A DNA stretch of 64,000 bases from Christensenellales bacterium. Lineage in GTDB: Bacteria > Bacillota > Clostridia > Christensenellales > SZUA-584. The notes beneath the pieces are model-generated. The model worked only from the letters and a program-made list of their open reading frames with translations, was not told where the DNA came from and searched no databases. The first letter of the stretch is position 1. The number at the start of each line of letters is the position of its first letter. Location of the stretch: the NCBI GenBank assembly GCA_050943215.1, contig JBMNOU010000001.1, positions 9,618-73,617 of the forward strand, in the 5' to 3' direction. The position numbers were made by a program, and so were the translations under genes. Of this stretch, positions 10,706 through 56,601 are shown one piece after another.

Positions 10706-11335
10706 TTACTTTGTGCCAAATAGCCTATCCCCCGCATCGCCGAGTCCGGGAATGATATATCCATGATCATTTAGCCGCTCGTCTACGGCACAGACAAAAA
10801 TATCGACATCGTCATGCTCATTTTGCACGGCTTGAATTCCTTCGGGCGCAGCAATTAGGCATACTAGCTTAATACTTTTTGCACCTCGGTCTTTAATTAG
10901 CTGTATCGCACCGTTTGCGCTTCCGCCAGTTGCAAGCATTGGATCAACAACGATCAGATCCCTTTCTGCCGCATCCGTGGGAAGTTTGCAATAATATTCT
11001 ACCGGTTTTAAAGTTTCAGGATCACGGTAAAGGCCAATATGCCCGACCTTTGCAGCAGGAACTAATGAGAGCATGCCATCGACCATGCCAAGACCTGCCC
11101 GCAGTATAGGCACGATTCCGATCGTTTTCCCGGATATGACTTTTGTCTTTGCCTTGGCAATCGGTGTTTCGATCTCTACTTCTTTAAGCGGCATGTCGCG
11201 CGTTACCTCGTAAGCCATTAGCATCGCTAACTCTTCAACAAGATGGCGAAAATCCCGTGTACCCGTCTGTTTGTCTCTGATCAGCGATATCTTGTGCTGT
11301 ATCAGAGGGTGATCCATAATTATTAGCTTGCCCAT
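10706..11335 (-). CDS. upp: Uracil phosphoribosyltransferase
   Basis: 209 aa with the PRPP-binding loop [11 protein letters not shown] and the C-terminal [16 protein letters not shown]. Confidence 0.95.
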
Positions 11336-11387
11336 TACTGCCCTCGCGATTATAATAATTTAGCAATATTAAAAAAGGAAAAACAGA

Positions 11388-11831
11388 TTACTGCTTTTCC
11401 AGGCCCATCACTTTATCGATTCGCCTTAAATGCCTGGACTCATTCGAAAATTTCGTTCCCAGAAACGCATCGACAATCTCAATCGCGAGCCCTGGCCCTG
11501 TTACTCTTTCTCCAAGCGCCATCACGTTGGCGTCATTGTGCTCTCTGGTAGCTTTTGCCGAGAACACGTCGCCAAGAAGCGCGCATCGTATGCCTTTCAT
11601 TTTATTGGCCGTAATGGACATTCCAATGCCCGTTCCGCAGACCAGAATGCCAAAATCCGCTTTACCTGAAACAATCGCGTCGCATACGGGAACCGCAAAA
11701 TCCGAATAGTCACAGGAGCTTTTATCACATGTTCCAAAATCGATTGTCTCAAACCCTTTCTTTTTTAAATGATCAACAATGGTATTTTTCAGTTCAAATC
11801 CGCCGTGATCAGATCCAAGTGCAATTTTCAT
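11388..11831 (-). CDS. rpiB: Ribose-5-phosphate isomerase B
   Basis: MKIALGSDHGGFELK and ILVCGTGIGMSI motifs. The start is trimmed to ATG 11831. Confidence 0.9.
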   Translation of the reverse strand: MKIALGSDHGGFELKNTIVDHLKKKGFETIDFGTCDKSSCDYSDFAVPVCDAIVSGKADFGILVCGTGIGMSITANKMKGIRCALLGDVFSAKATREHNDANVMALGERVTGPGLAIEIVDAFLGTKFSNESRHLRRIDKVMGLEKQ

Positions 11832-41546: not shown

Positions 41547-44500
41547 ATGAAAAAGAAATTGAACCATGTGAGCAGGCGCATGTTGGCTATGCTGTTGTGC
41601 GTCCTCTCACTTCTTGCGCTCATCCCTTCCACTGCATTTACCGCGTCGCAGGTACAGGTGGAATCGCGCAATGTCACTAATTATTTTGAATATATCAGCG
41701 GTTCGGGGACATGGGAGGAATTGAAAACCCCAGAACACTATATTGTTGGGACAAATGAAATGGCCTACTGCTTGCAACACAAAAAGAGCAGCCCCCATGT
41801 AGGCAACAACTTTAACAAAGTGGAGCTATCCGACTTCTATTCTTCCCGCGTTGTTACCGGGCTTCAAATCATATTAGAACGCGGTTATCCGGCTGAAACG
41901 CCGTCCAATTTAACGGCGGTACAGGCGCGGTATGCTACAGCCAATGCCATCCGGTTTTGGTTGTCGGAAAACGGCGATGCCGATCAATACAATTTCACCA
42001 ACCGGCAGAGCAATCCGGGTAGCATCCGCGCCGAGAGCGGACAGCAGGCGGTACTGGATTACGCCGACCAGCTATTGGCGTATGCTCGCAGCCAGCAAAG
42101 GCTGGAGCATAGGGTCGCGTTCTCTCCTGCCAGCCTCAGCATGGCGCTATCGGGAGATTACTTTGTTGGCACGACTACCGTATCGCTGACCAACTGCAAC
42201 GGCGGGTATACCCTCGACCAAAGCAGCCTGCCGTCCGGCTCACAGGTAAGCGGATATACGTGCAGGAACGGCGATGTGCTGACCATCAGAATTCCTGCTG
42301 AGTATGGCAACAGAAGCATCACGCTGCAGGCAAATGGCCTGGATGACCGTGTGGCGGCGAATATCTTCATGTACGCCAGCACTTCGAGCAGCATTCAGAA
42401 CGTAATCACCATCGGCATGGGCAGCTATCGCGCTGCAGGCGAAGGTTCGATTCTGCTCAACACCCCGGCGTATGGCAGCATCGATATTGTCAAAACCACC
42501 AAGAACAACGGCGGCAGCGTATCGGGCTTTCAATTCCGTGTCACAAAGCAGGACGGTACGCTCATTGGAACGTATGTGAGCGGCAGCAACGGCAAAATAA
42601 ATGTCCCCAATCTTCTTGCCGGATGGTATAAGGTTGAAGAAATCAACCTTTCGGACGAGTTTGTAAAGCCGTCCCCCAACCCCGTAGATATTGAGGTAAA
42701 GAGTGGACAGACGGCAACGGCCAGCTTCGACAATGTGAAGAAAATGGGCGTGATTACCGTGCAAAAGAGCAACCCCAATCCCGTCATGGGCAATTATTCT
42801 CTTGCGGGCGCGGAGTTCACCGTCAAAGACGCGGGCGGCGCGGTGGTGAATACCATCGTAACGGGCGCGAACGGAAAGGGACAATCCAAGGCGTTGCCGC
42901 TCGGATCGTACAGCGTTTTTGAATCCAAAGCGCCCTGGGGCTTTGTTGTGGCTAAGACCGTTCACTCCCGTACCCTAACGGGTGCGCAAAGCACGGCGGC
43001 GATCATCTACGCTCCCGAAATTGGTATGCCGGAAAAGCCGCAGGTCGGCAGGATCAAAATCACTAAACAGGACGCCGAGACAGGCAGCGCCGCACAGGGA
43101 GACGCCACGCTTTCGGGCGCGGTGTTCGATTTGTTTGACAGTAAGGGCAATTTGGTGGAACGCCTCTATTGCGGCGATAACACCACGGTAACATCCAAAG
43201 ATGTGCCTTTGGGCAAGGGGTATGTGGTAAAAGAAGTCACGCCGCCAAAGGGGTATACCCTTTCCGGGAAGGAATATACCGTCAACATCGATTACGCCGG
43301 ACAGGATGTGGAGGTCACCCTTGCTTCCACGGAGGTTAAAAACACCGTTATCAAGGGCCGCATACAGATCGTGAAGCACAGTGACGACCCCGACCCACAG
43401 GTTGACCCGGAGAACGAACAAGTGCAGGCCCCGCTTGCAGGCGTGGTGTTCGACGTCTATCTAAAAGCGGCAGGCAGTTACGACAATGCCAAGCCTACAG
43501 AGCGTGACCGCATCACCACTGACGAACACGGCTATGCGCGCACAAAGGATTTGCCTTACGGCTTGTATGTGGTGAAAGAAGTGCAGGGCGTGGACGAACA
43601 TAAGGTTTGCGACCCGTTCGACGCTTTTATCAGCGATAATGACCGCACCTATTATTTCATCATCGAGAACCTCGCCTACTTCGGCAAGGTAAAGATCATC
43701 AAGGTGGACGAGGAAACGGGTAAAACCATTCCGCAGGCCAATATTGAGTTTAAGGTGAAAAACACCGATACGGGCGAATGGGTATCGCAGGAAATCCTCT
43801 ATCCCACGCCTGTCACCATCGACACCTATCTCACCAACACCGAGGGCTGGCTGGTGATGCCATCGCCGCTCAAACACGGCAATTATGAACTCCATGAGGT
43901 GCAAAGTCCTTACGGATATCTGCTTTCGGAGAAAGCCATCCCGTTCAAGGTGACGAGCGACGATCCGCAGGAGTTTCTTGAGGTGAAGATGCCCGATAAA
44001 CCCGCTATGGGCAGAGTGAGCATAGAGAAAACAGGCGAAATGCTTGCAGGCGCGGATGAAATCGAAGGCAAGGTGATGAACATCTATGTTCCCCGCTATG
44101 AGATGCGATCCCTGCCTGACGCGGTTTTTGACATCATCGCCCGAACCGACATCGTTACCCCGGACGGCACAGTACGGGTAAAAGCCGGGACGGTGGTGGA
44201 CACGCTGACCACGGATGAAAACGGCAAAGCGGAATCCAAGCTGCTGTATTTGGGCGACTATTACGCCGTCGAGCGCGAAGCGTCCTTTGGTATGACGCTG
44301 GATGAAACAGAGCATGACTTCTCTTTGGTCTACGAAGATCAGAACACGCCCGTTGTCATTTCACAGGTGGGCGTATTCGATGAGCGGCAAAAGGCAGGCG
44401 TTACGCTTAAAAAGCATTGCGAATTCCCCGAAAACGCCGCCGAGGACTTTAACCCTTACGCCAGTATCGTATTCGGCCTGTTCGCCCGCGAGGATATTCT

Positions 44501-45740
44501 GACAGCAAGCGGCGAGGTCGGCATCCCCAAGAACGGGCTGCTGGAGTATGTTACGCCGGATAGGGACGGCAAAGGCGCTGTGCAAACGAACTTGCCCTTT
44601 GGCAGCTATTATTTCAAAGAACTGCAAACGGGTGCGGGCTATCTCTTGGACGACGCAGAGTACGATATTGCGTTTGAGTACGCCGGACAGGATGTTGCGA
44701 CGGTAGAAATCGCCGTAAACGATGGAAAAGCGATTGAAAACCGCTTGCAGCGCGGCAGCTTAAAGCTCATTAAGACCTTTGAGGGCAAGGAAACGCCGAT
44801 CAAAGGCGTACCGTTTACCATTGTCGGCCCAACGAGCGTGGGTACTGCCGTTACGATCAACGCCGTAACGGATGAGAACGGCGCAATCGTACTCGACAAT
44901 CTGCTGGTTGGGTATTACACCATAAAAGAATTGGACAGCGAACTCACGGCGGGAAATGTGTTGTCCAATGAAGTCACCATTCATGTCGCGCACAACGCCG
45001 TAGCCGATCTGACCATCCACAACAAGCTCATGCACGGCGATCTCAAAATCATCAAGGTGTTTGAGGGCAAGGAAAAACCGATAGCGGGCGTAAAATTCAC
45101 CACCACGGGCAAGACCCTGACCGGCAAGGAGTATTCCGCTGAGTTTGCAACCGATGAAAACGGCTGCATTACCGTGGAGGGCCTGCTTGTGGGTGATTAT
45201 ACCGTAAAGGAAATCGGTTCCGAGTTGACGGTTGGGTATGTGCTGTCTAAAGAACAGACCGCCACCATCGCCCATGAACGGCTTACCGAGATGAAAATCG
45301 AGAACAAGCTGATTCGCGGCGATGTAAAGCTCACCAAGATCGACAAAGAAGGCGGCACGAAGCTGGCCGGAGCGGTGTTTGACCTCTATGGCATGGATGG
45401 CAAGCAGATGGGCGTTTATGTCACCGATAAAAACGGTGAATTGCTCATCAAAGACTTACCTTACGGTACGGGTTACCGACTGATAGAGTCCAAAGCGCCG
45501 GAGGGCTACAAGCTGGATAAGGTGGAGTTTACCTTTGATATTAAAGAAAATGGCGCAACGCTGGAATATGCGGCAGTCAATGAGAAACTTCCCACACCGA
45601 CAAACCCCAAAACGGGCGACGACAGGAACCCGGCATTGTGGGCTATCCTGCTTGGTCTGAGCGCGGCGGGCGGCGTGGTGATGGTGATCTTGGCGTTGCG
45701 TAAAAAAACGGATTTCAACGCCAAGCGGAATGGGGACTAA
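41547..45740 (+). CDS. Cell-wall-anchored adhesin with many Cna-B/SpaA-type repeats
   Basis: 1397 aa. It has a signal peptide and more than 10 repeats of the G.(V/A)F.L...G....T(D/G).(N/D)G......L..G.Y...E...P.GY type. The C-terminal sorting signal is NPKTG followed by a hydrophobic helix and RKK. Confidence 0.85.
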   Translation: MKKKLNHVSRRMLAMLLCVLSLLALIPSTAFTASQVQVESRNVTNYFEYISGSGTWEELKTPEHYIVGTNEMAYCLQHKKSSPHVGNNFNKVELSDFYSSRVVTGLQIILERGYPAETPSNLTAVQARYATANAIRFWLSENGDADQYNFTNRQSNPGSIRAESGQQAVLDYADQLLAYARSQQRLEHRVAFSPASLSMALSGDYFVGTTTVSLTNCNGGYTLDQSSLPSGSQVSGYTCRNGDVLTIRIPAEYGNRSITLQANGLDDRVAANIFMYASTSSSIQNVITIGMGSYRAAGEGSILLNTPAYGSIDIVKTTKNNGGSVSGFQFRVTKQDGTLIGTYVSGSNGKINVPNLLAGWYKVEEINLSDEFVKPSPNPVDIEVKSGQTATASFDNVKKMGVITVQKSNPNPVMGNYSLAGAEFTVKDAGGAVVNTIVTGANGKGQSKALPLGSYSVFESKAPWGFVVAKTVHSRTLTGAQSTAAIIYAPEIGMPEKPQVGRIKITKQDAETGSAAQGDATLSGAVFDLFDSKGNLVERLYCGDNTTVTSKDVPLGKGYVVKEVTPPKGYTLSGKEYTVNIDYAGQDVEVTLASTEVKNTVIKGRIQIVKHSDDPDPQVDPENEQVQAPLAGVVFDVYLKAAGSYDNAKPTERDRITTDEHGYARTKDLPYGLYVVKEVQGVDEHKVCDPFDAFISDNDRTYYFIIENLAYFGKVKIIKVDEETGKTIPQANIEFKVKNTDTGEWVSQEILYPTPVTIDTYLTNTEGWLVMPSPLKHGNYELHEVQSPYGYLLSEKAIPFKVTSDDPQEFLEVKMPDKPAMGRVSIEKTGEMLAGADEIEGKVMNIYVPRYEMRSLPDAVFDIIARTDIVTPDGTVRVKAGTVVDTLTTDENGKAESKLLYLGDYYAVEREASFGMTLDETEHDFSLVYEDQNTPVVISQVGVFDERQKAGVTLKKHCEFPENAAEDFNPYASIVFGLFAREDILTASGEVGIPKNGLLEYVTPDRDGKGAVQTNLPFGSYYFKELQTGAGYLLDDAEYDIAFEYAGQDVATVEIAVNDGKAIENRLQRGSLKLIKTFEGKETPIKGVPFTIVGPTSVGTAVTINAVTDENGAIVLDNLLVGYYTIKELDSELTAGNVLSNEVTIHVAHNAVADLTIHNKLMHGDLKIIKVFEGKEKPIAGVKFTTTGKTLTGKEYSAEFATDENGCITVEGLLVGDYTVKEIGSELTVGYVLSKEQTATIAHERLTEMKIENKLIRGDVKLTKIDKEGGTKLAGAVFDLYGMDGKQMGVYVTDKNGELLIKDLPYGTGYRLIESKAPEGYKLDKVEFTFDIKENGATLEYAAVNEKLPTPTNPKTGDDRNPALWAILLGLSAAGGVVMVILALRKKTDFNAKRNGD

Positions 45741-46886: not shown

Positions 46887-47561
46887 ATGGCATTGATAAG
46901 TGCATTTATCACCAATTTAGGCAAATACAACGAAGGCGAACTTGTAGGAAAGTGGCATGGCTTTCCTACCACAAAGGAAGCTATCATGCAGACATTTCGG
47001 AAAATCGGCATTGACGGTGTCCGTTACGAAGAATTTTTCATTACTGATTATGATTGTGAGATCGATGGGATTTACGACTGCTTGGGTGAACATGCCAATA
47101 TCGATGAATTAAACTATCTTGCTTCTAAACTGGACGATATGGCAAGCTATGAGATCGAGCATTATGAGTCAGCAATAGAGACAGGCGAATATAGCAGCAG
47201 CGTTAAAGATCTGATTAACCTTACCGACAACCTCCACTGCTTTGATTATTTGGAAGGCGTCACTAATGATTACGATCTCGGCTATTATTGGGTTGAAGAA
47301 AGCGGTTGCCACGATACCAAGAGCATGGGCAGCTTGACTAACTATATCGACTATGAGGGGTTTGGAAGGGATATTCGTCTTGAAGAAAGCGGTATATTTG
47401 CCGGCAAGGGCTATATCCGCAACAATGGTGATACGTTCAGCGAAGATTACGACGGAATGAACGTGCCGGATGAATACAAAGTATTTGCTTTACCAAAACC
47501 TAAACTCCTATCACGAAACGCCCCTAAACTAAAAGCAAAACATGATAGGGATGCAAGATAA
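46887..47561 (+). CDS. ardA: Antirestriction protein ArdA
   Basis: The N-terminus ISAFITNLGKYNEGELVGKWHGFPTT, the acidic overall composition and the roughly 220-aa length are typical of ArdA. Confidence 0.85.
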   Translation: MALISAFITNLGKYNEGELVGKWHGFPTTKEAIMQTFRKIGIDGVRYEEFFITDYDCEIDGIYDCLGEHANIDELNYLASKLDDMASYEIEHYESAIETGEYSSSVKDLINLTDNLHCFDYLEGVTNDYDLGYYWVEESGCHDTKSMGSLTNYIDYEGFGRDIRLEESGIFAGKGYIRNNGDTFSEDYDGMNVPDEYKVFALPKPKLLSRNAPKLKAKHDRDAR

Positions 47562-47593: not shown

Positions 47594-48980
47594 ACATATC
47601 AAGCAGCGTTGATCTGGGTAGTGTCAAATCAAGTTTGCAAAATCACTCCGATAAGAATGAATCAAGCGGCAGATAAAAAGGCGTCCTGAATGGACTGTGC
47701 ACTCAAATATGCCCTTGCGGACGACCAGTCTTCTGAATATTCCATGAGGTACGTGGCGACCAGCCGCAGGTAGGATGCAGGGTTCGGGAAGATACCGACC
47801 ACTCTGGTACGCCGCCGGATTTCTTTATTGAGTCTTTCCAGCATATTGGAACTGGAAGTCTTTCGAAAATCCAAAGCCGGGAAACAAAAGAACGCGAGGG
47901 AGTCTTCCAGTCCGTCTTCCAGTATTCGAATGGCCTGCGGAAACCGCTTCTCAAATTCTTCGACCAGCGCGGCAGCCCTTCTTCGGGCGGTCTCCATGTC
48001 CGGAGCAAGCCATATCTGTTTGAGCTTCCCTGCAAAAACCTGCTTGTCCCTATGCGGAACATGAACCAAAATGTTGCGCATAAAATGCACTTTGCAACGC
48101 TGCCAGCAAGCGCCGGGGAAGCTTTCGCGTATGGCGGCGACCAATCCGGCGTGGGCGTCCGAAATGACCAGGGACGGGGCGATAAGCCCTCGGCCTTTCA
48201 GCCTTTCAAAGAGCTGGGCATAGCTTTCACGGGATTCATCCAGCATAGGCTCGACGGCCAGCACCTCCCTTGATCCGGCTTCATTGACTCCACAGACAAG
48301 CAGGATCGCCATGCTAACAACACGCCCGTCGTAACGTACCTTTTCATACAGAGCATCCACCCAAAGCACGGGGTAACGGTTGCCTTCAAGCGACCGGTTG
48401 CAGAACGCCTCCACCTGCCCGTCCATTTCTTTGGCCGTGTTGCTTACCTGAGAGCGTGACAGGTTTTCAATTCCCAAACGCTTTGCCAGACGCTCCATTT
48501 TGCGGGTAGAAACGCCGTTTATGAAAGCCTCCTGAACCACCTGGATGAGCGCCGCTTCGCTTCGTTTTCGGTCACTCACAAAGAACGGAACATACCCGCC
48601 TTGCCGCATCTTGGGAACCATCAGATAGATCGTCCCCATCCTGGTGTCAAATCGTCTGGGGCGGTAGCCTGAACGATAGCCTTGACGGTCGGTGGTGTGC
48701 TGTGATTTTTCCGCTCCGATTCTTGTCGAAATCTCCGCTTCCATCAATTGATCGCATAGCCACTCCAGCATCGACAGCATCGGATCAGGTTCGCTCATGC
48801 ATTGCAGTAGTAATTCAGCCAGGTTTGTGGTAGTCTTTTTTTGAGCCATCGGTTTTTCTCCTTTTGAATGATTTGCTCGCACCATTCATTCTATCGGAGT
48901 GTCCGGTGGCTTTCCATATCCACATATAAATTGCAAACACTTTTGTACTCTATCTTGATCTGTAACGCTGCTTGATATGT
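47594..48980. mobile_element. IS256-family insertion sequence
   Basis: 17-bp perfect terminal inverted repeats, ACATATCAAGCAGCGTT (47594-47610) and its reverse complement (48964-48980). Imperfect similarity continues about 45 bp inward, including GTTTGCAA. A single mutator-type transposase lies inside. Total length is 1387 bp. Confidence 0.8.
47662..48849 (-). CDS. IS256-family (mutator-type) transposase
   Basis: About 395 aa with a typical N-terminus (AELLLQ...DPMLSMLEWLCDQLMEAE) and a DDE region (WVDALY..., VISDAHAGL..., CKVHFMRN). The start is trimmed to ATG 48849. Confidence 0.9.
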   Translation of the reverse strand: MAQKKTTTNLAELLLQCMSEPDPMLSMLEWLCDQLMEAEISTRIGAEKSQHTTDRQGYRSGYRPRRFDTRMGTIYLMVPKMRQGGYVPFFVSDRKRSEAALIQVVQEAFINGVSTRKMERLAKRLGIENLSRSQVSNTAKEMDGQVEAFCNRSLEGNRYPVLWVDALYEKVRYDGRVVSMAILLVCGVNEAGSREVLAVEPMLDESRESYAQLFERLKGRGLIAPSLVISDAHAGLVAAIRESFPGACWQRCKVHFMRNILVHVPHRDKQVFAGKLKQIWLAPDMETARRRAAALVEEFEKRFPQAIRILEDGLEDSLAFFCFPALDFRKTSSSNMLERLNKEIRRRTRVVGIFPNPASYLRLVATYLMEYSEDWSSARAYLSAQSIQDAFLSAA

Positions 48981-49034
48981 GGGTAAAATGTCATAATCAG
49001 CGATATAATTTAAAAGCATCGGGAGCTAATATTT

Positions 49035-50162
49035 TTATTCCTTACAACTCAAATCAAAGGCGAGGCGGAACCCTTTGTTATTGTTGTTCTGGTCGTATAA
49101 AACTAATCGGGCGTCGGCTTTTGGCATATATGCTCTACCAAACTCCACAGCGGCTGAAACAGGGCATGCGGGAAAAACATGAACAACCGCGTCTTGTCCG
49201 TGATACTCTCTTATCAAACGAAAAAGTTCGCGGTACTTTCCACGCAATGTTGCAAGGTGCTCACGGTTTTTTATGTAATCGTTGCTTGGGTTTTGATGCG
49301 TGATGTTCCAGATTGAAATGTCGTTACCAAGAACATTTTGAATACGGTCGTCTGTAATATTGTCACTGAGTGAAAGCTTGACCGCTACCGCTGAGGATTT
49401 TGTAGTCGGTGTGGTTATCTCATATCTAATCTGCGAATCATCATCAAGCCATGCCCAAGTATCTGGTTCCCTATGCTTCTGGAACACATCCACCTCGGTG
49501 ATATCACCAAACAGCATTCCAAGCCTAATCAAAAGCGGTATCGGAGCAATCGCAAACAGCAAAATTTTTTCACTTCTGCTCTGCTCTTTCAAAATATTTA
49601 TTTCTTGCCTGAATTTTTCCTGCAATTGAGCCCATTCACTTGACCAAAATTGACTTATGTCATCATAGAAAGCGGTATTATTGGGGTTAAGGTCAATTGG
49701 ATAGCGTGGTGCGATAAGTTTTGCCGCCCTGACAGCTTCATTGATTTTTTCGTTCGTTATCGTCGGCTGATTATCGCCAATTTTTGAGGTGTACTTTACC
49801 ACCAAGGCGTGTTCGTTTTGAAGGGCCAATAATTGCTCCCGGACTTTTTGCTCATGATTATTCTTTATACTGTGCAACCTCTCAACTGTGTAAAATTCTG
49901 GAATCTTATCTTTATCAACCTTGGTATGGCAAGTCGGGCAAAGCAGAATGATGTTATCAATATCTCCAGCATATTTTTTTGATTCGACAGAACCCCGTGT
50001 TCCGTCCTCACTGTCGGCGATGATATGGGCATACTCTTTAACATTTATTTCTGAACGCGAGAATTTATCGTAATCAAGAGGCTCACAGCACAAGGAGCAT
50101 AACCCTCCGCACTTAAAATACAGTTCCCATTTATCTTGTGTCTTCAGGTTTGTTTTTGACAT
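49035..50162 (-). CDS. HNH endonuclease fused to SAVED-like sensor domain (Cap5-like CBASS effector)
   Basis: N-terminal Cys-rich HNH (CSLCCEPL...EYAHIIADSEDGTRG...NIILLCPTCHTKVD). The roughly 250-aa C-terminus has an LLFAIAPIPLLIRLGMLFGD-type segment consistent with SAVED. It is the last gene of the operon. Confidence 0.75.
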   Translation of the reverse strand: MSKTNLKTQDKWELYFKCGGLCSLCCEPLDYDKFSRSEINVKEYAHIIADSEDGTRGSVESKKYAGDIDNIILLCPTCHTKVDKDKIPEFYTVERLHSIKNNHEQKVREQLLALQNEHALVVKYTSKIGDNQPTITNEKINEAVRAAKLIAPRYPIDLNPNNTAFYDDISQFWSSEWAQLQEKFRQEINILKEQSRSEKILLFAIAPIPLLIRLGMLFGDITEVDVFQKHREPDTWAWLDDDSQIRYEITTPTTKSSAVAVKLSLSDNITDDRIQNVLGNDISIWNITHQNPSNDYIKNREHLATLRGKYRELFRLIREYHGQDAVVHVFPACPVSAAVEFGRAYMPKADARLVLYDQNNNNKGFRLAFDLSCKE

Positions 50163-50168
50163 CGCTAT

Positions 50169-50828
50169 TCACCTCTTATCCAATTCAGCTATGATTGATT
50201 CAAAGTCATCCTTGTATCGTTCATAGAGTGAACTTACCTTAAGCTCGTTGATTTTCTCTCTATGGCAATCTCTGTAGCGCTTGCCAGATTGACAGGGGCA
50301 TTGAAAATGTCCTTTCAGGTTTTCTCTGAACAGACAAACCAATAAAGCGTATGCAACTTTGATATCAGTGGTTTCAAACAATTCACAGTAATAATCCAAC
50401 AGCCCCTCGACTCCGTGCTTGTGTTCTCCGAACGGCAAGTATTTGTGCTTTCGGTAAAATAAGAAACCGCAGAGATAGGTATCCAAGTACTTGGCCAAAA
50501 AAGCAAGCAAGCTTGGATGTTCCTGCAAAAACGCAGCTATTGCCGTATCAACTTCCAAACAGAGCTGACCGTTTGCGTATACATGTCCCTTGTAATTGTT
50601 AGCCCGGATTTTACCGTCTGTGTTTTTTGCTGTTGGGATATCTTCAGGGAAGCCATTGGGAACAAAAATTTCAAGCGAAAAGTAGTTTTCAAATATTTCA
50701 TTTTCAAACTGATTGCAGATTTTATATTTGCCGATAAATTTCAAACCGCCATCAATCTCGGTTTTTGTCAACAGCGGCTGTTGTACTAACAGTATTTCAA
50801 CCTCCTCCAGTACCGCAGCTCGCAACAT
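50169..50828 (-). CDS. E2 (UBC)-like protein with C-terminal SEC-C zinc motif
   Basis: SLEIFVPNGFPEDIP followed by GHVYANGQLCLE mirrors the UBC (f.fp..YP..pP ... HPN...G.iCL) active-site layout. The C-terminal CPCQSGKRYRDCH is a SEC-C motif. Confidence 0.65.
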   Translation of the reverse strand: MLRAAVLEEVEILLVQQPLLTKTEIDGGLKFIGKYKICNQFENEIFENYFSLEIFVPNGFPEDIPTAKNTDGKIRANNYKGHVYANGQLCLEVDTAIAAFLQEHPSLLAFLAKYLDTYLCGFLFYRKHKYLPFGEHKHGVEGLLDYYCELFETTDIKVAYALLVCLFRENLKGHFQCPCQSGKRYRDCHREKINELKVSSLYERYKDDFESIIAELDKR

Positions 50829-50829
50829 A

Positions 50830-52065
50830 TCACCGCCTATATGGTTTGGGCTGATTGACTCCTGTGATTATTGTGGGAACAGATTTCGTTGCATTAAGGT
50901 TTAGGTTAGCATATATGCGTTTAGTAGCCTCTTCGCCAAAGCTCTTTTGAAGTGATGTGAATTTGTCCGCTGAATCCGCTCGGTCAAATCCAAAATCGCT
51001 TTTTATCCATTCGACCCATTTGAAAAACGCCTTTGCGCGTGCGTTTCCATCTTCAGTCCAACGCTCCGCAAAATTTTCATATGGGTTGACAGGATTGCAT
51101 AGGTGCCAGCCATCACTGTCGCGTTTGATAATCACAGCATTTCTTTGTGCCAGCCTTTCCGCTGAATAAGCATAGAAGTCTTGGTTTAGAGAGGAATATT
51201 GACTCAATTCTTCGACAACTGCTTGGAGCAGCTCTTTAACAGAGGCATTATACAACTTTTTCTCGGCAGCGATTTGTGCCACAAGAACTGTAATTATAAT
51301 TGAAATTGGTCTGTAAGCGTAATCGGGCTGTCTGTCGAAACGAACATCACGATGCCGCTTGAAAAGCTGAATCACTCGTTGTAACGAGGATTTTAAAAGT
51401 GGTTCAGGAACGGCCTCAATGGAAGCATAAGCTTTCTTTTCAACAAGTATCCGCCGCTGATATTCCGAAACGGCTTGGAGGTAAGGGGTGTTAATATTTT
51501 TGAACCAGTCAACCAAACCGTGCGAATTGCCTGTCGACCAGTCATATGTATCTCCGTCTTTGTCAAAGTCCGTTATTGCTATTGCTTTTTTTGCAATTGA
51601 AAGGGGAATATTTTTGAACACGATTTTGTTGATTATTTCATTCTCCTCGTGTACACATGGTAGAACATCCATATGAAAGCCTACGCCGTCCGTCGGCGCA
51701 TAATTCAATGTCCAACAACGCCGCCCTTCGTTTGGGTCAAGCAAGTTTTTATGATATTGACTTTTGTCAAGGCATTTCCCAACCGACTTTTTTAATACTC
51801 GGGGTTTGAGGATAAGCTTATCGTCCGAAGATTGCGCTACAAGATCAATATCAAAGTCGGCATCTCTCCCCTCCCGATAAGGACGTATGACCGTGCCGAA
51901 CGCAAACGACCCTTGTGTGTAAACATCTGTTGCTACACCATCCTCGGTTAAGCATTTTGCTACCGCCTCATAGTGAGATTTCGCCAAATCATATTGTGTT
52001 GGTGTGATGTCTATCTGCTTATACAATTCCTCAGTCACGGAATCGAAGTTCAAAATTTTTTCCAT
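50830..52065 (-). CDS. CD-NTase/SMODS-like nucleotidyltransferase
   Basis: Pol-beta NTase triad context: YTQGSFAFGTVIRP, DADFDIDLV, and GFHMDVLP. The 411-aa length and the genomic context with E2 and HNH-SAVED also fit. Confidence 0.75.
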   Translation of the reverse strand: MEKILNFDSVTEELYKQIDITPTQYDLAKSHYEAVAKCLTEDGVATDVYTQGSFAFGTVIRPYREGRDADFDIDLVAQSSDDKLILKPRVLKKSVGKCLDKSQYHKNLLDPNEGRRCWTLNYAPTDGVGFHMDVLPCVHEENEIINKIVFKNIPLSIAKKAIAITDFDKDGDTYDWSTGNSHGLVDWFKNINTPYLQAVSEYQRRILVEKKAYASIEAVPEPLLKSSLQRVIQLFKRHRDVRFDRQPDYAYRPISIIITVLVAQIAAEKKLYNASVKELLQAVVEELSQYSSLNQDFYAYSAERLAQRNAVIIKRDSDGWHLCNPVNPYENFAERWTEDGNARAKAFFKWVEWIKSDFGFDRADSADKFTSLQKSFGEEATKRIYANLNLNATKSVPTIITGVNQPKPYRR

Positions 52066-52075
52066 CGGTATCTCC

Positions 52076-53176
52076 TTAATCTCTTATGATGTTTAATAAG
52101 TCGTAGTAGAAAAAAGTTCTGTTACGGCTCTTGTTGTCGGTGTAAAGTATCTGAGCTTGGACTAATGCGTTCAAATATCGGTTAATCGTCGCCGGAGGGA
52201 TTTGCGTTTCTTTTGCAATCGTGTTTGCGTTAATGATTGGGAAACGGAATAGTAAATCAATAATCTCCGTCATTTGATTACTACGAACAAGGCCTGATGC
52301 TTTGCTCAAGTGCTCATTATAGAGTTTGTTAATATCAGAAATGATTCTAATATATTTTTTGCATTGACTCGTAACTATCTGTAAAAAGAAGTTTATCCAT
52401 TCAGACCATTGCCCCTTTTCTCTGATATTGTTCAGGAGCGTATAATACTTCATTTTATCGCGCTCCAGAGCCTCACTGATGAAAAAGCAAGGCATATCAA
52501 TTTGTTCGGAAGCGTAAAGGTAAAGCGGGATTAGGATTCGTCCAACACGGCCATTGCCATCTAAAAAAGGATGTATAGTTTCAAACTGAGCATGAACAAT
52601 GGCGGTGCGAACAAGTGGACGTAGGATGTCTTTAGGTTCGAGTATATAATTGATGAGATTGTCCATTAACTCAGGCACTTTTTCAAATATAGGAGGGGTA
52701 TAGGTTATCTCATGTGGGCTACCTACTTTTCCAATGTAATTCTGCTGTGTTCTGAATATGCCAACTTCTTGGTTTTGTCGCCGTACTTTGCCTTTCATAA
52801 GAATTTTGTGAATTTCAAGGATGAAATCCTTGCTCATTTTGTCACGCTTGAGGAAATTATACCCCATTATAGCGGCAGTATTGTAATTGATAATCTCGAC
52901 AAGGTTCGCATCTTTATCATCGGGAACGACCTGATTGATTAGCACGCCATCAAGTGTCGCTTGTGTTCCCTCTAACATAGATGAAGCAAGAGCTTCTTTT
53001 TGCTGTAATGTTGGCAAGAACCAGTGCTGGCTAAGCTTGCTATCCTTAATTTTCTCTTTATAAACTTCAAGCTGAGCTGTAGCATCTATAAGTGAATCGA
53101 AAAATAGTTTCGGCTTTATATAATCTGCACCAAGTGGCAACACCATTGGTTCAAAAGCAATTTTCTGGCTTTTCAT
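52076..53176 (-). CDS. Fic-domain protein (Fic_N inhibitory helix + Fic core + C-terminal wHTH-like region)
   Basis: HPFLDGNGRVGR core and SSMLEGT ((S/T)xxxE(G/N)) motif. The C-terminal IAKETQIPPATINRYLNALVQAQIL is HTH-like. The probable start is ATG 53176 after GAGGAG; the track begins at TTG 53182. Confidence 0.85.
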   Translation of the reverse strand: MKSQKIAFEPMVLPLGADYIKPKLFFDSLIDATAQLEVYKEKIKDSKLSQHWFLPTLQQKEALASSMLEGTQATLDGVLINQVVPDDKDANLVEIINYNTAAIMGYNFLKRDKMSKDFILEIHKILMKGKVRRQNQEVGIFRTQQNYIGKVGSPHEITYTPPIFEKVPELMDNLINYILEPKDILRPLVRTAIVHAQFETIHPFLDGNGRVGRILIPLYLYASEQIDMPCFFISEALERDKMKYYTLLNNIREKGQWSEWINFFLQIVTSQCKKYIRIISDINKLYNEHLSKASGLVRSNQMTEIIDLLFRFPIINANTIAKETQIPPATINRYLNALVQAQILYTDNKSRNRTFFYYDLLNIIRD

Positions 53177-53205
53177 AAACAACTCCTCTTTTCAAAGCAT
53201 GATTT

Positions 53206-53248
53206 ATTGTAGCATATATAGAATCAAAATTCAACTATTTTGATTCTA
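53206..53248 (-). promoter_or_regulatory. Promoter of the fic-CBASS operon with overlapping palindromic operator
   Basis: On the minus strand: TTGAAT (53234-53229), 17 nt, then TACAAT (53211-53206). A perfect palindrome, TAGAATCAAAAT-tcaact-ATTTTGATTCTA (53219-53248), covers the -35 and the spacer. Confidence 0.55.
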
Positions 53249-53463
53249 ATTTATAATTTTTATGCTCTATAGCCTCACAAAACAAAAAATATGAGGATAG
53301 CTACACCTTCATAATAGTACTTGGATTAGTTGTGGGTTAAGGAGTATGGGGAGTGCAGCAATCAGCATCTATGTATTTTACTTTGCATTTTATAAATTCC
53401 ACCGTGGTATTATCGTAAAAATCCAGTCTTATATTGTAACTACAAATTATTTTCAGCTTTTTC

Positions 53464-53505
53464 TACATAGCCATCCGGCGAAACCTGGGTGGCATAATTT
53501 TATTT
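53464..53505 (+). repeat. Leader-hairpin repeat, copy 3 (upstream of Toprim gene)
   Basis: TACATAGCC-[hairpin]-GGCATAATTTTATTT, then AGGAGG and ATG 53518. Confidence 0.5.
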
Positions 53506-53517
53506 AGGAGGTTTTTT

Positions 53518-54480
53518 ATGCCATATATTATCCCGGAGTTGATAGCCGAAGCCAAGAAAATGGACTTGCTCACCTATTTGCAATCATACGAGCCGCAGGA
53601 ACTTGTACGCTTCTCCGGCAGCGTCTACACGACCCGCACCCACGACAGTCTGAAAATCAGCAACGGGAAATGGTGCTGGCATAGCCGTGGGATCGGTGGG
53701 CGCAGCGCGCTGGACTATCTTATCAAGGTGCGGGGCGTGGGCTTCACGGATGCGGTGGAACAGATTGTTGGGCAGGCGGCAGTACAGCCGCCTGTTTTCA
53801 CATCCGATACGGAGCCGAAAGAAACCGCTCCGTTTATTTTGCCGCAAATGGATAGCAGCATGGACGCAGTGGAGTGCTATCTTATGGGACGCGGAATCAG
53901 CCATAGTCTGATCCGCTATTGCGCTGATTTGCGGATTTTGTACCAAACCCGCAACGGCAAATATGCCAACGTCGTTTTTGTGGGACTGGATACGGACAAA
54001 ATCCCGCGCTATGCCACCGTCAGGGGAATACGTGGGAACTTTAAGGGAGATATAACGAGCAGTGACAAAAAGTATTCCTTTGCCCTGCCCAACGGCAGCG
54101 GCAATCTGCATCTGTTTGAATCGGCAGTAGATCTGCTTTCCTTTGCTACTTTGCAGGACATCCAAGTACCGAACTATTTTGATGGCGACCTGCTTTCCCT
54201 CTCCGGCGTTTATAAACCGCGAAAAAATATAGCGGAAAGCACATTGCCGTCCGCCCTCACGCAGTATTTGGCCGACTACCCGGACATTTGGCGTGTTCAC
54301 CTTCATCTTGACAACGACCTTGCTGGACGGCTTGCGACCAAAGCCATTATAACCGCCCTGCCGAAGCATTACGAGGTGCTGGATGCGCCGCCGCCCACGG
54401 GCAAGGATTACAACGATACCCTTTGTGACCGGTTGGGGATGACCCGTTATCAAACGAGAGAAAGGAGTTTAGCAAGATGA
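53518..54480 (+). CDS. DUF3991 + Toprim domain protein (conjugative primase-like)
   Basis: N-terminal DLLTYL...SLKISNGKWCWHSRGIGGRSALDYLI, and the C-terminal LHLFESAVDLLS...HLHLDNDLAGR Toprim acidic motif. Confidence 0.8.
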   Translation: MPYIIPELIAEAKKMDLLTYLQSYEPQELVRFSGSVYTTRTHDSLKISNGKWCWHSRGIGGRSALDYLIKVRGVGFTDAVEQIVGQAAVQPPVFTSDTEPKETAPFILPQMDSSMDAVECYLMGRGISHSLIRYCADLRILYQTRNGKYANVVFVGLDTDKIPRYATVRGIRGNFKGDITSSDKKYSFALPNGSGNLHLFESAVDLLSFATLQDIQVPNYFDGDLLSLSGVYKPRKNIAESTLPSALTQYLADYPDIWRVHLHLDNDLAGRLATKAIITALPKHYEVLDAPPPTGKDYNDTLCDRLGMTRYQTRERSLAR

Positions 54481-54665
54481 AAGAGTTTAAGGTCGAAATC
54501 AAAGAAACCCTCGTCATGACCGTGGCTGTGGAAGCCGAGAGCGCGGCGCAGGCGCGGGAAATTTCCGAACGCAATTGGAAAAACAGCGAGTATATTTTGG
54601 ACGCTGACTACTTTCAGGGCGTGAGCTTTACCGTCCCTCCCCGAAATAGAGATTTGGAAAGGTAG
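54477..54665 (+). CDS. Small DpnD/PcfM-like protein
   Basis: 62 aa, MKEFKVEIKETLVMTVAVEAESAAQA.... Its start overlaps the previous stop (ATGA). Confidence 0.5.
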   Translation: MKEFKVEIKETLVMTVAVEAESAAQAREISERNWKNSEYILDADYFQGVSFTVPPRNRDLER

Positions 54666-54844
54666 GGATTCGCATAAAATGCAGAGCGGCAGCTTAAACG
54701 CTGACCGTTTTCTTTTCGGCGTGTGAACCTTTGAAAGTCGAGCTTTCGGGAATGCACTATACCAGCAAGCATCGCCTTTGTACTCCCACAAAGGCACTTT
54801 TTAGGGGAAAATCCCCTAATACCCCTCTTAGAAAGGATGAGTTT
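54666..54844 (+). promoter_or_regulatory. Candidate oriT region
   Basis: The intergenic region just upstream of mobC-relaxase contains three inverted repeats: GAAAGtcgagCTTTC, GCCTTTGTactcccACAAAGGC (54773-54794), and AGGGGAaaaTCCCCT. Confidence 0.35.
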
Positions 54845-55174
54845 ATGAGAAAACGAAATGTTCGTATCCAATTCTGGCTTGATAAAAAAGAGGCCGAAGC
54901 CTTCAATAAAATAGTAAAGCGCAGCGGCCAATCCCGCGAGGTGTATCTGCGCCATATCATAAGCGGCCTTGTTCCCACTGACGTACCGCCCCCCGATTAC
55001 TACACCATGATGAGGGAACTCCACGCCATCGGCACGAACCTGAATCAGATCGCGCAAAAAGCCCATGTGCTAAACGCGATTGACGTCAACCGCTACGACG
55101 AGAACGCCGCCCTGCTGAAAAAAGCAATCGTAGGAATTACCAATGCCGTCATGCTGCCGAGAAAAATCGGATAG
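54845..55174 (+). CDS. mobC: MobC-type relaxosome accessory protein
   Basis: RNVRIQFWLDKKEAEAFNKIVKRSG (RHH-like) and GTNLNQIAQKAH motifs. The start is trimmed to ATG 54845. Confidence 0.8.
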   Translation: MRKRNVRIQFWLDKKEAEAFNKIVKRSGQSREVYLRHIISGLVPTDVPPPDYYTMMRELHAIGTNLNQIAQKAHVLNAIDVNRYDENAALLKKAIVGITNAVMLPRKIG

Positions 55175-56601
55175 TGGCTGTCACTTCCATTTGGAGCGTC
55201 AAGGGCTGGCTTGGTAAGGTGCTTGTCTATACAGAGAACCCCGACAAGACCGAGAACCCCGCCTATTATGAAAAGCAAGGCATGACGGCTGCGCAGGCGC
55301 AGGGGCTTTCGGACGTCATAGACTACGCTTCCCAAACCCGCAAGACACAGCTTACCGATGAAAACGCCGAAATCCTCCGGCATTACGTCACCGGGCTGAA
55401 CTGCGCTCCCGAGACTGCCCGCGACGAGATGATTGCCGCAAAGAAAAAATTCGGCAAAGAAAATGGCGTCGTCGTTTATCACGGCATACAGTCCTTTTCC
55501 TCCAAAGATTTGCAGGCGGGATTGACCCCCGACATGGCGCATGAAATCGGCGTAAAGTTAGCCAAGAGGCTTTGGGGCGATCAATACCAAGTCGTTGTCA
55601 CCACACATTTGGATAAAGCCAACCACCTTCATTCTCATTTTGTAGTCAACACGGTTTCGTGGGTAGACGGCATTCGCTACCATCGCACTGAGCGGGATTA
55701 CTACAATATGCAAATCGAGTCCGACAAGCTATGCCGTGAATATGGCCTGTCCGTCATCGAAGAACCCAAGCGCGGCAAATCCAAACATTACGGTGAATGG
55801 CGGTCCGAAAAAGACAGCCAACCCACCTACCGTAGTTTGGTCAAAGCCGACGTCGATCAGGCCATATTGGAATCCATGACCGAGCGGCAGCTTTGGGACA
55901 ATCTTTATAAAAAAGGCTATCATATCAAATTCGGTAAAGACATCACCCTGCGCCCTCCGGGTAAAGACAGGGGTTTGAAGCTATATCGCAACTTTGGCGA
56001 GGATTATTCGATTGAGAGCATCCGAAATCGCATATTGGCAAATATGCGTCCGCAGCGGATCGTCCTCCCGGCAGAGAGACCGCCCAAGCGGATATACCTT
56101 ATTGGCAAACTAAATACCGCCCGTAAGATTACAGGGCTTCGCGCCCTGTATTTTTCTTATCTCTACAAAATGGGTGTTCTCCCGAAAAAGCGGAAGCAAT
56201 CACCAAACCGCATATATTTTTTGTTCCGCGAGGATATTCGCTTTATTCAAAATATCTCAAAAGAAACCCGTTTGTTGGTGACGCATGGCATCGACACCGC
56301 CGAGCAGCTTACCGACCATAAGGACAACTTAACGACTGAAATCATTTCCCTGTACGACGAACGGAAGTGTTTGCGGTATCAAATGCGAAATATCCATGAC
56401 GATGAAAAGCTGGCGGCAATCAAAACCGACATTGCCGCTCTATCCGCTAAAATCGGTGAACTGCGAAAGGATGTGAGGTTATGTGAGGATATTGAAAAGC
56501 GCTCTATAGATATGAAAGAGAAAATCCGCAGAGCCGCCGAGGACGAAAAAAACAAGGGAAAGGAGATGAGCCGACATGAATCATTCAGGGGACGCCGCTG
56601 A
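55174..56601 (+). CDS. Relaxase/mobilisation nuclease (MobA/VirD2 family)
   Basis: His-triad THLDKANHLHSHFVVN, an N-terminal relaxase fold and a C-terminal coiled coil. The GTG start overlaps the mobC stop. Confidence 0.9.
   Translation: MAVTSIWSVKGWLGKVLVYTENPDKTENPAYYEKQGMTAAQAQGLSDVIDYASQTRKTQLTDENAEILRHYVTGLNCAPETARDEMIAAKKKFGKENGVVVYHGIQSFSSKDLQAGLTPDMAHEIGVKLAKRLWGDQYQVVVTTHLDKANHLHSHFVVNTVSWVDGIRYHRTERDYYNMQIESDKLCREYGLSVIEEPKRGKSKHYGEWRSEKDSQPTYRSLVKADVDQAILESMTERQLWDNLYKKGYHIKFGKDITLRPPGKDRGLKLYRNFGEDYSIESIRNRILANMRPQRIVLPAERPPKRIYLIGKLNTARKITGLRALYFSYLYKMGVLPKKRKQSPNRIYFLFREDIRFIQNISKETRLLVTHGIDTAEQLTDHKDNLTTEIISLYDERKCLRYQMRNIHDDEKLAAIKTDIAALSAKIGELRKDVRLCEDIEKRSIDMKEKIRRAAEDEKNKGKEMSRHESFRGRR

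Follow-up and report, generated by a model that had tools for sequence, protein, structure and literature searches.

A 64,000-nucleotide stretch of DNA from a Christensenellales bacterium (positions 9,618 to 73,617 of contig JBMNOU010000001.1; hereafter the window) carries on its minus strand a cassette of four genes. The first encodes a Fic protein of the SoFic family, and the other three encode the components of a cyclic oligonucleotide-based antiphage signaling system (CBASS), namely a CD-NTase (the cyclase), an E2-like protein, and an effector with HNH and SAVED domains. The cassette probably consists of two mechanistically independent immune modules that are transcriptionally coupled under a promoter controlled by Fic. 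All four proteins belong to described families, and they do not represent a new immune mechanism. Instead, it is their organization that is new. The features of the cassette are as follows.

49022–53260, minus strand: conserved 4.2-kb cassette (operator-promoter and four genes), aligned to relatives as a single blastn high-scoring segment pair (HSP)
53221–53246, minus strand: palindromic operator GAATCAAAAT-AGTTGA-ATTTTGATTC, a perfect 10+10-bp palindrome straddling the -35 box; predicted site of the Fic winged helix-turn-helix (wHTH)
53206–53234, minus strand: predicted sigma-70-like promoter with -35 TTGAAT (53234–53229), a 17-nt spacer, and extended -10 TGcTACAAT (53214–53206)
52076–53176, minus strand: SoFic-family Fic protein, 366 aa, with Fic_N, Fic core, inhibitory motif S65xxxE69G70, and C-terminal wHTH (residues ~300–366)
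50830–52065, minus strand: CD-NTase, 411 aa, with G52S53, D70xD72, D133, and the C-terminal tail VPTII-x-N-PKPYRR
50169–50828, minus strand: E2-like protein, 219 aa, with the active-site loop H82...C90 and the SEC-C knuckle C177-P-C179...C188-H189
49035–50162, minus strand: Cap5-type effector, 375 aa, with an N-terminal HNH nuclease and a C-terminal SAVED sensor

The open reading frame (ORF) listing gives four consecutive minus-strand ORFs at 52076–53182, 50830–52065, 50169–50828, and 49035–50162. The Fic stop codon (TAA, 52078–52076) is separated by 10 nt from the cyclase ATG at 52065 (TAAGGAGATACCGATG), the cyclase stop codon (TGA, 50832–50830) by 1 nt from the E2 ATG at 50828 (GGCGGTGATATG), and the E2 stop codon (50171–50169) by 6 nt from the effector ATG at 50162 (AAGAGGTGAATAGCGATG). 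On inspection of the DNA, a Shine-Dalgarno-like sequence precedes each start. At the junctions it lies at, or overlaps, the preceding stop codon, and that of the cyclase gene overlaps the stop codon of Fic. Fic translation probably begins with the ATG at 53176, 6 nt past AGAGGAG; the TTG at 53182 is less likely. A consensus scan of the coding strand found no terminator-like site at the three junctions. From this geometry and the lack of terminator-like junction sites, we infer that the four genes are co-transcribed. A preliminary description of this DNA had reported the same packing, gaps, and ribosome-binding sites, and had proposed a single transcription unit; the ORF list and the DNA bear it out. 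The span given there, 49035–53260, does contain the four genes, but position 53260 is non-coding and marks the 5' edge of the conserved cassette including the promoter. The source is a Christensenellales metagenome-assembled genome, where the NCBI annotation of all four proteins is generic only, and an Rfam search of 48800–53600 gave zero matches at E <= 1.

Genes 2 to 4 match described CBASS components in profile searches. The cyclase matches the PADLOC cyclase model at 6.6e-93 and the Pfam families DncV-like_NTFase (8e-8; 33.5 bits, cut-off 24.9) and SMODS (2.5e-6; 28.3 bits, cut-off 26.5). Its nearest PDB sequences are a bacterial cGAS (9woo, 1.6e-32) and SmCdnG (8hsb, 2.7e-16), which are structural neighbors and not a formal clade assignment. 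G52, S53, D70, D72, and D133 are invariant in the cyclase alignment (A2), and the pol-beta triad is intact. The E2-like protein matches the PADLOC E2 models at 6.9e-48 to 8e-30. It exceeds the Pfam cut-off for SEC-C and matches UQ_con weakly, and a search of PDB sequences gave no match at E <= 0.01. H82, C90, and the CPC...CH zinc knuckle are invariant over 10 diverse family members (alignment A4). The effector matches Pfam SAVED at 5e-53 and HNH at 21.8 bits (cut-off 21.4), and the PADLOC endonuclease effector and SAVED_HNH models at 3.9e-119 and 1.7e-109. It also matches, over its full length, the PDB chain 7rwk (5e-61), which is deposited as a "SAVED domain-containing protein" and which we take to be a Cap5 structure. 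No ORF of the four-ORF cassette matches E1 or JAB in the ORF list and profile searches. Since the catalytic residues of the cyclase and E2 are intact, the effector is of the HNH-SAVED type, and no E1 or JAB gene is present, genes 2 to 4 are identified by sequence as a type II-short (E2) CBASS with a Cap5-type effector. The profile searches thus agree with the class assigned in the preliminary description, and they place 50830–52065 in SMODS and 49035–50162 in SAVED. The motifs on which that description drew are all found: the cyclase has GSFAFGT, DADFDID, and GFHMDV, the E2 has HVYANGQLCLE, and Fic has HPFLDGNGRVGR and SSMLEG.

The C-terminal tail of the cyclase is encoded at 50830–50880 of the window. 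It is kept as VPTII-x-N-PKP[YW]R[RK] in A2, even between lineages with a cyclase identity of only 37%. For E2-CBASS, the extended cyclase tail is reported to carry an E2-binding motif and a terminal Gly that is its sole conserved residue and serves for covalent linkage (PMC12948482). The 411-aa length of the window cyclase and its conserved tail are compatible with such an extension. Gly403 of the window cyclase is Ala in L001 and is missing from the SLATT lineage in A2. Since the reported terminal Gly is not conserved in the tail of this clade, the site of E2-cyclase ligation may differ here. Fic enzymes modify hydroxyl side chains, which counts against the idea that Fic substitutes for an E1 by adenylating the C-terminus of the cyclase. 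This idea was set aside, as E2-CBASS reportedly needs no E1 to function (PMC12948482).

The first gene encodes a Fic protein that matches the PADLOC SoFic model at 1.6e-103, with residues 9–367 covering profile positions 8–359 of 361. The Pfam matches to Fic (1e-18; 68.2 bits, cut-off 24) and Fic_N (9e-13) exceed the cut-off, whereas those to HTH_24 and SoFic-like_C remain under it. SoFic chains are matched among PDB sequences at 1e-25 to 4e-27. The AlphaFold2 (AF2) model has a predicted template-modeling score (pTM) of 0.77 and aligns in Foldseek to SoFic (3zcn/3eqx) with TM-scores of 0.75–0.77 over ~371 columns. The winged-helix region of the model, a C-terminal H-E-H-H-E-H segment, has per-residue confidence (pLDDT) of ~85–90. 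The core motif HPFLDGNGRVGR at residues 202–213, with the catalytic His202, is invariant in the Fic alignment (A1; consensus HxFx(D/E)GNGRxxR). In the class II inhibitory motif S65-S-M-L-E69-G70, which lies N-terminal to the core, S65, E69, and G70 are invariant in A1; AF2 confidence is low at residues 61–90, the region of the inhibitory helix. Motifs, profiles, and the AF2 model are therefore in line with the intact catalytic loop and C-terminal HTH that the preliminary description had ascribed to this protein. That description regarded the locus as a "CBASS variant" and Fic as an undescribed CBASS component. Judged by its profile matches, however, the protein is a member of the SoFic family, though not an orthologue-grade match. 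SoFic is a stand-alone single-gene anti-phage defense, as shown experimentally (10.1101/2022.05.11.491447), and it is reported to AMPylate EF-Tu at switch-I (2026 preprint, 10.64898/2026.07.09.737422).

The region upstream of Fic contains the only promoter and operator assigned to the cassette. The predicted promoter has 9/12 consensus matches with TG, as a consensus match in a promoter scan. The palindrome lies 45–70 nt upstream of the Fic start codon. When the 160-nt regions preceding Fic in ten lineages are aligned (A3), the sole conserved element is AATCAA..TTGA..TTTGATT..TG.TA...T, in which the TTGA..TG.TA...T columns are invariant, and the surrounding DNA is unconserved. A strict form of the operator motif has 33 matches in 1.79 Mb of fetched loci, and all 33 are located 67–75 nt upstream of a Fic start. 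It matches once in the window, against 0.12 matches expected by chance. In a sister clade of Fics with 52–62% identity, the palindrome is found at the same position with symmetric arm changes. The arms read AACCA/TGGTT in L021, L025, and L027, whereas L023 has GTTCA/TGAAC on arms of 12 nt. The putative recognition helix changes in parallel: from A-T/S-I-N-R-Y-L, the AACCA lineages have gone to T-T/S-V-N/S-R-Y/L-L, and L023 to S-S-V-S-R-Y-L. For SoFic, binding of the dimer to its own promoter has been reported, less than 100 bp from the start codon (10.64898/2026.07.09.737422). Since Fic is the only gene constantly tied to the operator and such promoter binding is reported for dimeric SoFic, a Fic dimer most likely autoregulates its promoter through the palindrome, as the conservation and covariation of the operator also suggest. 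The CBASS genes of the window have no promoter region of their own, so their expression would be placed under the Fic-controlled promoter. The preliminary description had offered three roles for Fic, those of a regulator, a second effector, or a guard. The evidence favors a second effector, in the sense of an independent defense, and a transcriptional regulator acting on its own operator.

The cassette is conserved as one block. A single blastn HSP extends from window positions 53252–53261 to 49022–49049, with 93% identity in L001, L101, and L003, 77% in L102, and 72% in L104. The block takes in ~80 nt of promoter upstream of Fic, and all four genes are ~93% identical between the window and L001. 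The flanks are unrelated among the window, L001/L101, L102, and L104, which amounts to at least four contexts. The 93% Fic homologue heads the same four-gene cassette but adjoins ParA/ParB. The identities of Fic and cyclase co-vary with r = 0.99 over 13 Fic-containing loci. From the shared block, the unrelated flanks, and this correlation, the cassette moves and diverges as one unit with one promoter.

This conservation bears on whether Fic and CBASS are mere neighbors in a defense island with separate transcription, in which case CBASS would be expressed from an internal promoter toward the 3' end of fic, and nothing in its regulation would depend on the close packing. SoFic and CBASS both rank among the most abundant defense systems, and defense genes cluster. 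Promoter-like hexamer pairs do occur inside fic, for example at 52893..52866 with 10/12 matches, and incidental clustering of CBASS, Fic, and restriction-modification (R-M) genes is seen at L130. However, there are 20 promoter-like matches against 13.4 +/- 3.1 in shuffled sequence, little above expectation in this AT-rich region. The conserved block starts at the Fic promoter and not within fic, and the geometry is unchanged at 72–93% DNA identity. With the 10-nt gap, the Shine-Dalgarno sequence that overlaps the Fic stop codon, and the lack of a terminator-like site, separate transcription is very unlikely.

L130 was considered as a second Fic-cyclase operon and rejected. At L130:3598–12612, the S and R genes of a type I R-M system enclose a CBASS of the patatin type, with a phospholipase effector and a 567-aa cyclase, as well as a short Fic/DOC protein (PDC-S04) and a PDC-S05 protein. 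Such clustering is ordinary for a defense island, and there is no Fic-led operon.

The cassette is found in chromosomal as well as mobile contexts. In the window, it is located in the cargo region of a conjugative element. Its neighbors include the anti-restriction protein ArdA, DUF3991-Toprim, NikA/MobC, a MobA/VirD2 relaxase, DUF3801, and ParB, and an IS256/Mutator-family transposase gene (47662–48885) abuts the 3' end of the cassette. This setting suggests another role for Fic, that of a toxin or addiction module that chiefly stabilizes the cassette or the conjugative element instead of acting against phages. Expression of wild-type SoFic is indeed toxic, and the E. coli gene is followed by one for a small antitoxin (PMC12249575). 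In the window, however, the gap of only 10 nt between Fic and cyclase leaves no small antitoxin ORF there, and no small ORF was found at the position of the E. coli antitoxin AS1. The autoinhibitory Glu is intact, the cassette also occurs in chromosomes, and the anti-phage activity of SoFic was shown experimentally (10.1101/2022.05.11.491447). An addiction role as the chief function is thus highly improbable. Elsewhere, a 31-aa ORF (L007:1578–1673) lies directly behind a Fic with 72% identity, in the position of the 47-aa AS1 antitoxin of E. coli SoFic.

The gene neighborhoods bear on a further explanation, in which Fic is a true functional partner of CBASS. In that case, Fic would serve as an infection-responsive transcriptional gate or AMPylate the cyclase, E2, or effector, and the four genes would form one integrated system. 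CapW and CapH/CapP are regulators with a role analogous to the one that Fic would then have. The cyclase survey comprised 80 metagenomic loci that were retrieved with the cyclase alignment and form 46 clusters at 90% identity. Fic lies directly upstream of the cyclase in seven of the 46 clusters, four from the HNH-SAVED lineage and three from the SLATT lineage. Since Fic homologues adjoin CD-NTase genes in these clusters, the linkage put forward in the preliminary description holds elsewhere, and it does so in two CBASS lineages. In the Fic-linked HNH-SAVED lineage, the cyclases are 73–93% identical to that of the window, and the Fic-cyclase gap is 10–11 nt. The recurrence of Fic with two E2-CBASS lineages that differ in their effectors, the single promoter and operator for four genes, the gap kept down to 73% cyclase identity, and the tight co-divergence of Fic and cyclase all favor a partnership, as does the reported binding of SoFic-type proteins to their own promoters.

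Other loci of the same survey speak against a partnership. L105 and L107, whose cyclases have 50–54% identity, carry the cassette of cyclase, E2, and HNH-SAVED effector without Fic. The cyclase-E2-SLATT cassettes of L158 and L160 share 95% DNA identity with that of L143, which is Fic-linked, but the R subunit of a type I R-M system is found upstream instead of Fic, and the homology to L143 begins directly past the stop codon of Fic. Cyclase cluster 27 comprises 12 loci, 11 of them with AbiLii upstream; here AbiLi and AbiLii are located 7–10 nt from the cyclase ATG. The AbiLi+AbiLii of L132 match PADLOC at 1.3e-69, and the homology of this locus to the Fic-linked cassettes starts ~12 nt before the cyclase ATG. 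In L175, AbiLi matches at 5.4e-82 and the gap is longer. As read from these alignments, the module boundary lies exactly between Fic and the cyclase. Since HsdR or AbiL occupies the slot of Fic, cyclase, E2, and effector make up a self-contained cassette that docks behind varied stand-alone defense genes. Published E2-CBASS systems also work without Fic (PMC12948482).

The AbiL pair (an AAA_21 ATPase and a TOPRIM/RloB-like protein) precedes cyclase-E2-SLATT by 7–10 nt at L132:4058–8363 and in L141, L144, L147, L148, L151, L156, L177, and L180, and by longer gaps in L129 and L175. AbiL-CBASS is a second case of a promoter-less CBASS docked behind a stand-alone defense system.

The SLATT-type cassettes have a conserved leader of ~200 nt upstream of the cyclase (L143:5760–5964; L017:8130–8355; L158:5760–5964). 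Besides a TTGACA box, it contains the inverted repeats GGATTGAG..CTCAATCC and ATAGATGAT..ATCATCTAT, and it is kept with either Fic or an R-M gene upstream. A search of the leader against Rfam gave no match, only sub-threshold miRNA/sRNA noise. The hairpins are unlike the Fic operator and thus lend no support to regulation of the leader by Fic. That the SLATT-lineage cyclase keeps a leader of its own with or without Fic upstream is a further point against Fic as a partner of CBASS.

The Fic survey covered 80 species-representative GTDB loci with SoFic-like genes, retrieved with the Fic alignment. Cyclase, E2, SAVED, or SLATT genes were found within 7 kb of Fic in 0/80 loci by phmmer and family hidden Markov models, with clade-G-like cyclases, E2, HNH-SAVED, and SLATT as queries, a search that very distant CBASS types could escape. 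With these queries, a general association of SoFic with CBASS was rejected. Only 8/80 loci have Fics with at least 52% identity, all from Firmicutes-type metagenome-assembled genomes (Oscillospiraceae, Christensenellaceae, Lachnospiraceae, Phascolarctobacterium, and others), and in five of these eight Fic leads a three-gene DUF4417 cassette. In a separate survey of the neighborhoods of Fic homologues, those with 66–67% identity are located upstream of cyclase, E2, and SLATT_4 in two further contexts, with a gap of 228–255 nt. Others with 66–72% identity lead DUF8370 (PDC-M36A-like), a PDC-M48-like set with an E1-E2-JAB fusion, or an MBL-like set. The Fic gene and its promoter thus occur before differing cargo. 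In a neighbor-joining tree, drawn without bootstrap, the HNH-SAVED-linked Fics group with those of non-CBASS cassettes and not with the SLATT-linked Fics, and CBASS-linked Fics do not form one exclusive group.

Fic is therefore not an obligate CBASS accessory gene, given its presence in 7/46 clusters, AbiL or HsdR in its slot, the non-CBASS cassettes behind it, and its 0/80 linkage in GTDB loci. As Fic is facultative and separable from cyclase-E2-effector, it is not a CBASS component in the sense of the preliminary description. Near-identical CBASS cassettes stand behind R-M or AbiL genes, and the operator and Fic are unchanged ahead of unrelated cassettes; a true partnership of Fic and CBASS is therefore unlikely.

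In the organization that we favor, two independent modules under one promoter, a single transcript starting near 53200 would span Fic and the CBASS genes. In the first module, a Fic dimer would repress the promoter by placing its C-terminal wHTH on the palindrome. Infection would activate Fic, leading to AMPylation of a host target (EF-Tu by homology with SoFic) and translation arrest. The second module is the promoter-less type II-short CBASS, which follows Fic at a distance of 10 nt. Here, the E2 would attach covalently to the C-terminal tail of the cyclase and regulate it, by analogy with SmCdnG-SmE2. The cyclase would make a cyclic oligonucleotide, and binding of this signal by SAVED would switch on the HNH DNase, resulting in abortive infection.

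A more ambitious reading can be proposed, although tentatively and with considerable doubt. The Fic-wHTH of this Clostridia sub-clade would be an infection-responsive gatekeeper, which represses through the AATCAAAA/TTTTGATT operator until infection unleashes AMPylation and derepresses the fused cargo. Such cargo would include E2-CBASS with Cap5 or SLATT, E1-E2-JAB systems, and DUF4417 cassettes. The trigger might lie in auto-AMPylation, in dissociation of the dimer, or in a movement of the C-terminal domain driven by ATP. If this were true, Fic would represent a new class among the transcriptional regulators of CBASS, as a hybrid of toxin and regulator by which two abortive-infection responses are layered.

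Several observations weigh against the view that the two modules are independent and share a Fic-controlled promoter. The Fic-CBASS linkage outlasts casual island adjacency, being present in 7/46 clusters and in two lineages with cyclases ~37% identical, and there is no separate CBASS promoter region in the window lineage; some functional synergy or dependence between Fic and CBASS may exist. The L011 cassette is the third of this Fic sub-clade with an E2-type enzyme, in its case E1-E2-JAB, which could hint at a connection between Fic and E2. As for the shared promoter, phylogeny confounds the parallel changes of recognition helix and operator arms, Fic binding to the operator is something we infer, and the consensus scan gives promoter-like matches within the fic ORF as well. 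Furthermore, the protein scores 154.8 bits against the cut-off of 550 bits of the NCBIfam SoFic equivalog NF046030. With such a score, it may not have the same target specificity as the S. oneidensis protein, and EF-Tu is a presumed target.

What is new is that a toxin-type defense gene, probably an autorepressor, occupies the position of a promoter-proximal driver with exchangeable immune cargo downstream, and that a complete CBASS without a promoter of its own would depend on this Fic driver. Also new is the palindromic operator across the -35 box, which is invariant upstream of every Fic of the sub-clade. SoFic was recently reported to bind its promoter, and the operator supplies a concrete DNA site for such binding. 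If the coupling is real, it offers a simple testable model of how two abortive-infection systems are layered and co-regulated, and it would add a third type of regulator before CBASS. No report of a Fic-led CBASS operon was found in literature of incomplete coverage (CD-NTase with Fic domain; CBASS with AMPylation).

The DUF4417 and DUF8370 cassettes behind related Fics are unannotated and are candidate new defense systems, through guilt of position. The DUF4417 cassette is co-oriented behind Fics of the 52–62% clade and encodes DUF4417 (~220 aa, Pfam 2e-65), a ~140-aa protein, and a ~100–150-aa protein. The ~140-aa protein has a Gly-rich N-terminus (MGGRGTFAAGNP / MGAGYHGGFG). A PADLOC search gave no match for the proteins of this cassette, which by its position is a candidate uncharacterized defense or toxin cassette. 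The DUF4417 cassettes are located as follows.

L022:1386–2734
L023:8258–9911
L026:7714–9209 and 3779–5291
L027:8351–9677
L021:8163–9637

Behind a Fic with 68% identity at L011:3437–10711, there are a PDC-M48A-like protein of 183 aa, a LmuA-N / MBL-like protein of 354 aa, an E1-E2-JAB fusion of 755 aa, and a 563-aa unknown protein. This cassette has no cyclase, and its Fic belongs to the same sub-clade and has the same operator.

Further coordinates of the conjugative element in the window are 46887–47561, 53518–56601, and 41547–45740. Its region encodes a 1397-aa protein that appears adhesin-like from sequence features, being repeat-rich with a hydrophobic C-terminal segment. In the ParAB-linked context of L001, direct repeats of 113 bp that are 92–93% identical flank the cassette at ~6634–6746 and ~11292–11404, and they may be a footprint of cassette exchange. 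A second short Fic-like gene (221 aa, weak match to PDC-S04) lies ~1.6 kb downstream of the cassette at L001:12744–13409, and also in L003, L004, and L005. The whole cassette was compared with annotated plasmids and phages by blastn and was not found there, the only matches being ~45–90 nt over the Fic active-site motif. A scan of viral contigs with the cyclase alignment gave 293 pattern matches, of which tblastn confirmed none.

Among known systems, genes 2 to 4 resemble E2-CBASS with Cap5, as represented by SmCdnG-SmE2 of Serratia marcescens and the structures 7RWK/8FM1. The cyclase is long (411 aa), with the GS/DxD/D triad and a likely C-terminal extension; the E2 has a catalytic Cys and stands alone, E1 and JAB being absent; the effector is HNH-SAVED; and the order is cyclase-E2-effector, with genes that overlap or nearly do so. 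Unlike in E2-CBASS, the CBASS of the window has no separate promoter region, as it directly follows a SoFic gene with a 10-nt gap, and its E2 has no sequence-detectable PDB match. Its cyclase tail VPTIITGVNQPKPYRR lacks a family-conserved Gly, whereas the terminal Gly is reported to be conserved in the described systems (PMC12948482).

The Fic protein resembles SoFic (SO_4266 of S. oneidensis; EcSofic of E. coli) in its Fic_N/dimerization region, class II inhibitory helix, core, and wHTH, in a fold with TM-scores of 0.75–0.77, and in intact catalytic and inhibitory motifs. It differs in being only ~23% identical, under the NCBIfam equivalog cut-off. Furthermore, it does not stand alone but leads an operon with downstream defense cargo, and no AS1-like antitoxin gene follows it.

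As a predicted DNA-binding protein that heads a locus, with an operator overlapping the promoter and varied cargo, the window Fic is also similar to CccR, a Fic-wHTH autoregulator of Yersinia pseudotuberculosis. CapW/BrxR and CapH-CapP, which are regulators located in front of defense operons, are similar to it in role. Unlike all of these, the candidate regulator of the window is an intact toxin/effector enzyme, with neither the WYL nor the XRE-plus-metallopeptidase architecture, and regulation of its cargo is proposed from operon geometry alone.

Finally, the cassette shares with defense-island clusters such as AbiL+CBASS and L130 the juxtaposition of complete systems, the exchange of neighbors in the same slot, and the location on mobile elements. 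Unlike in typical island adjacency, the Fic-CBASS pair stays intact through substantial divergence (cyclase 73–93%, DNA 72–93%) and moves as a unit with a single promoter, which makes for a closer association.

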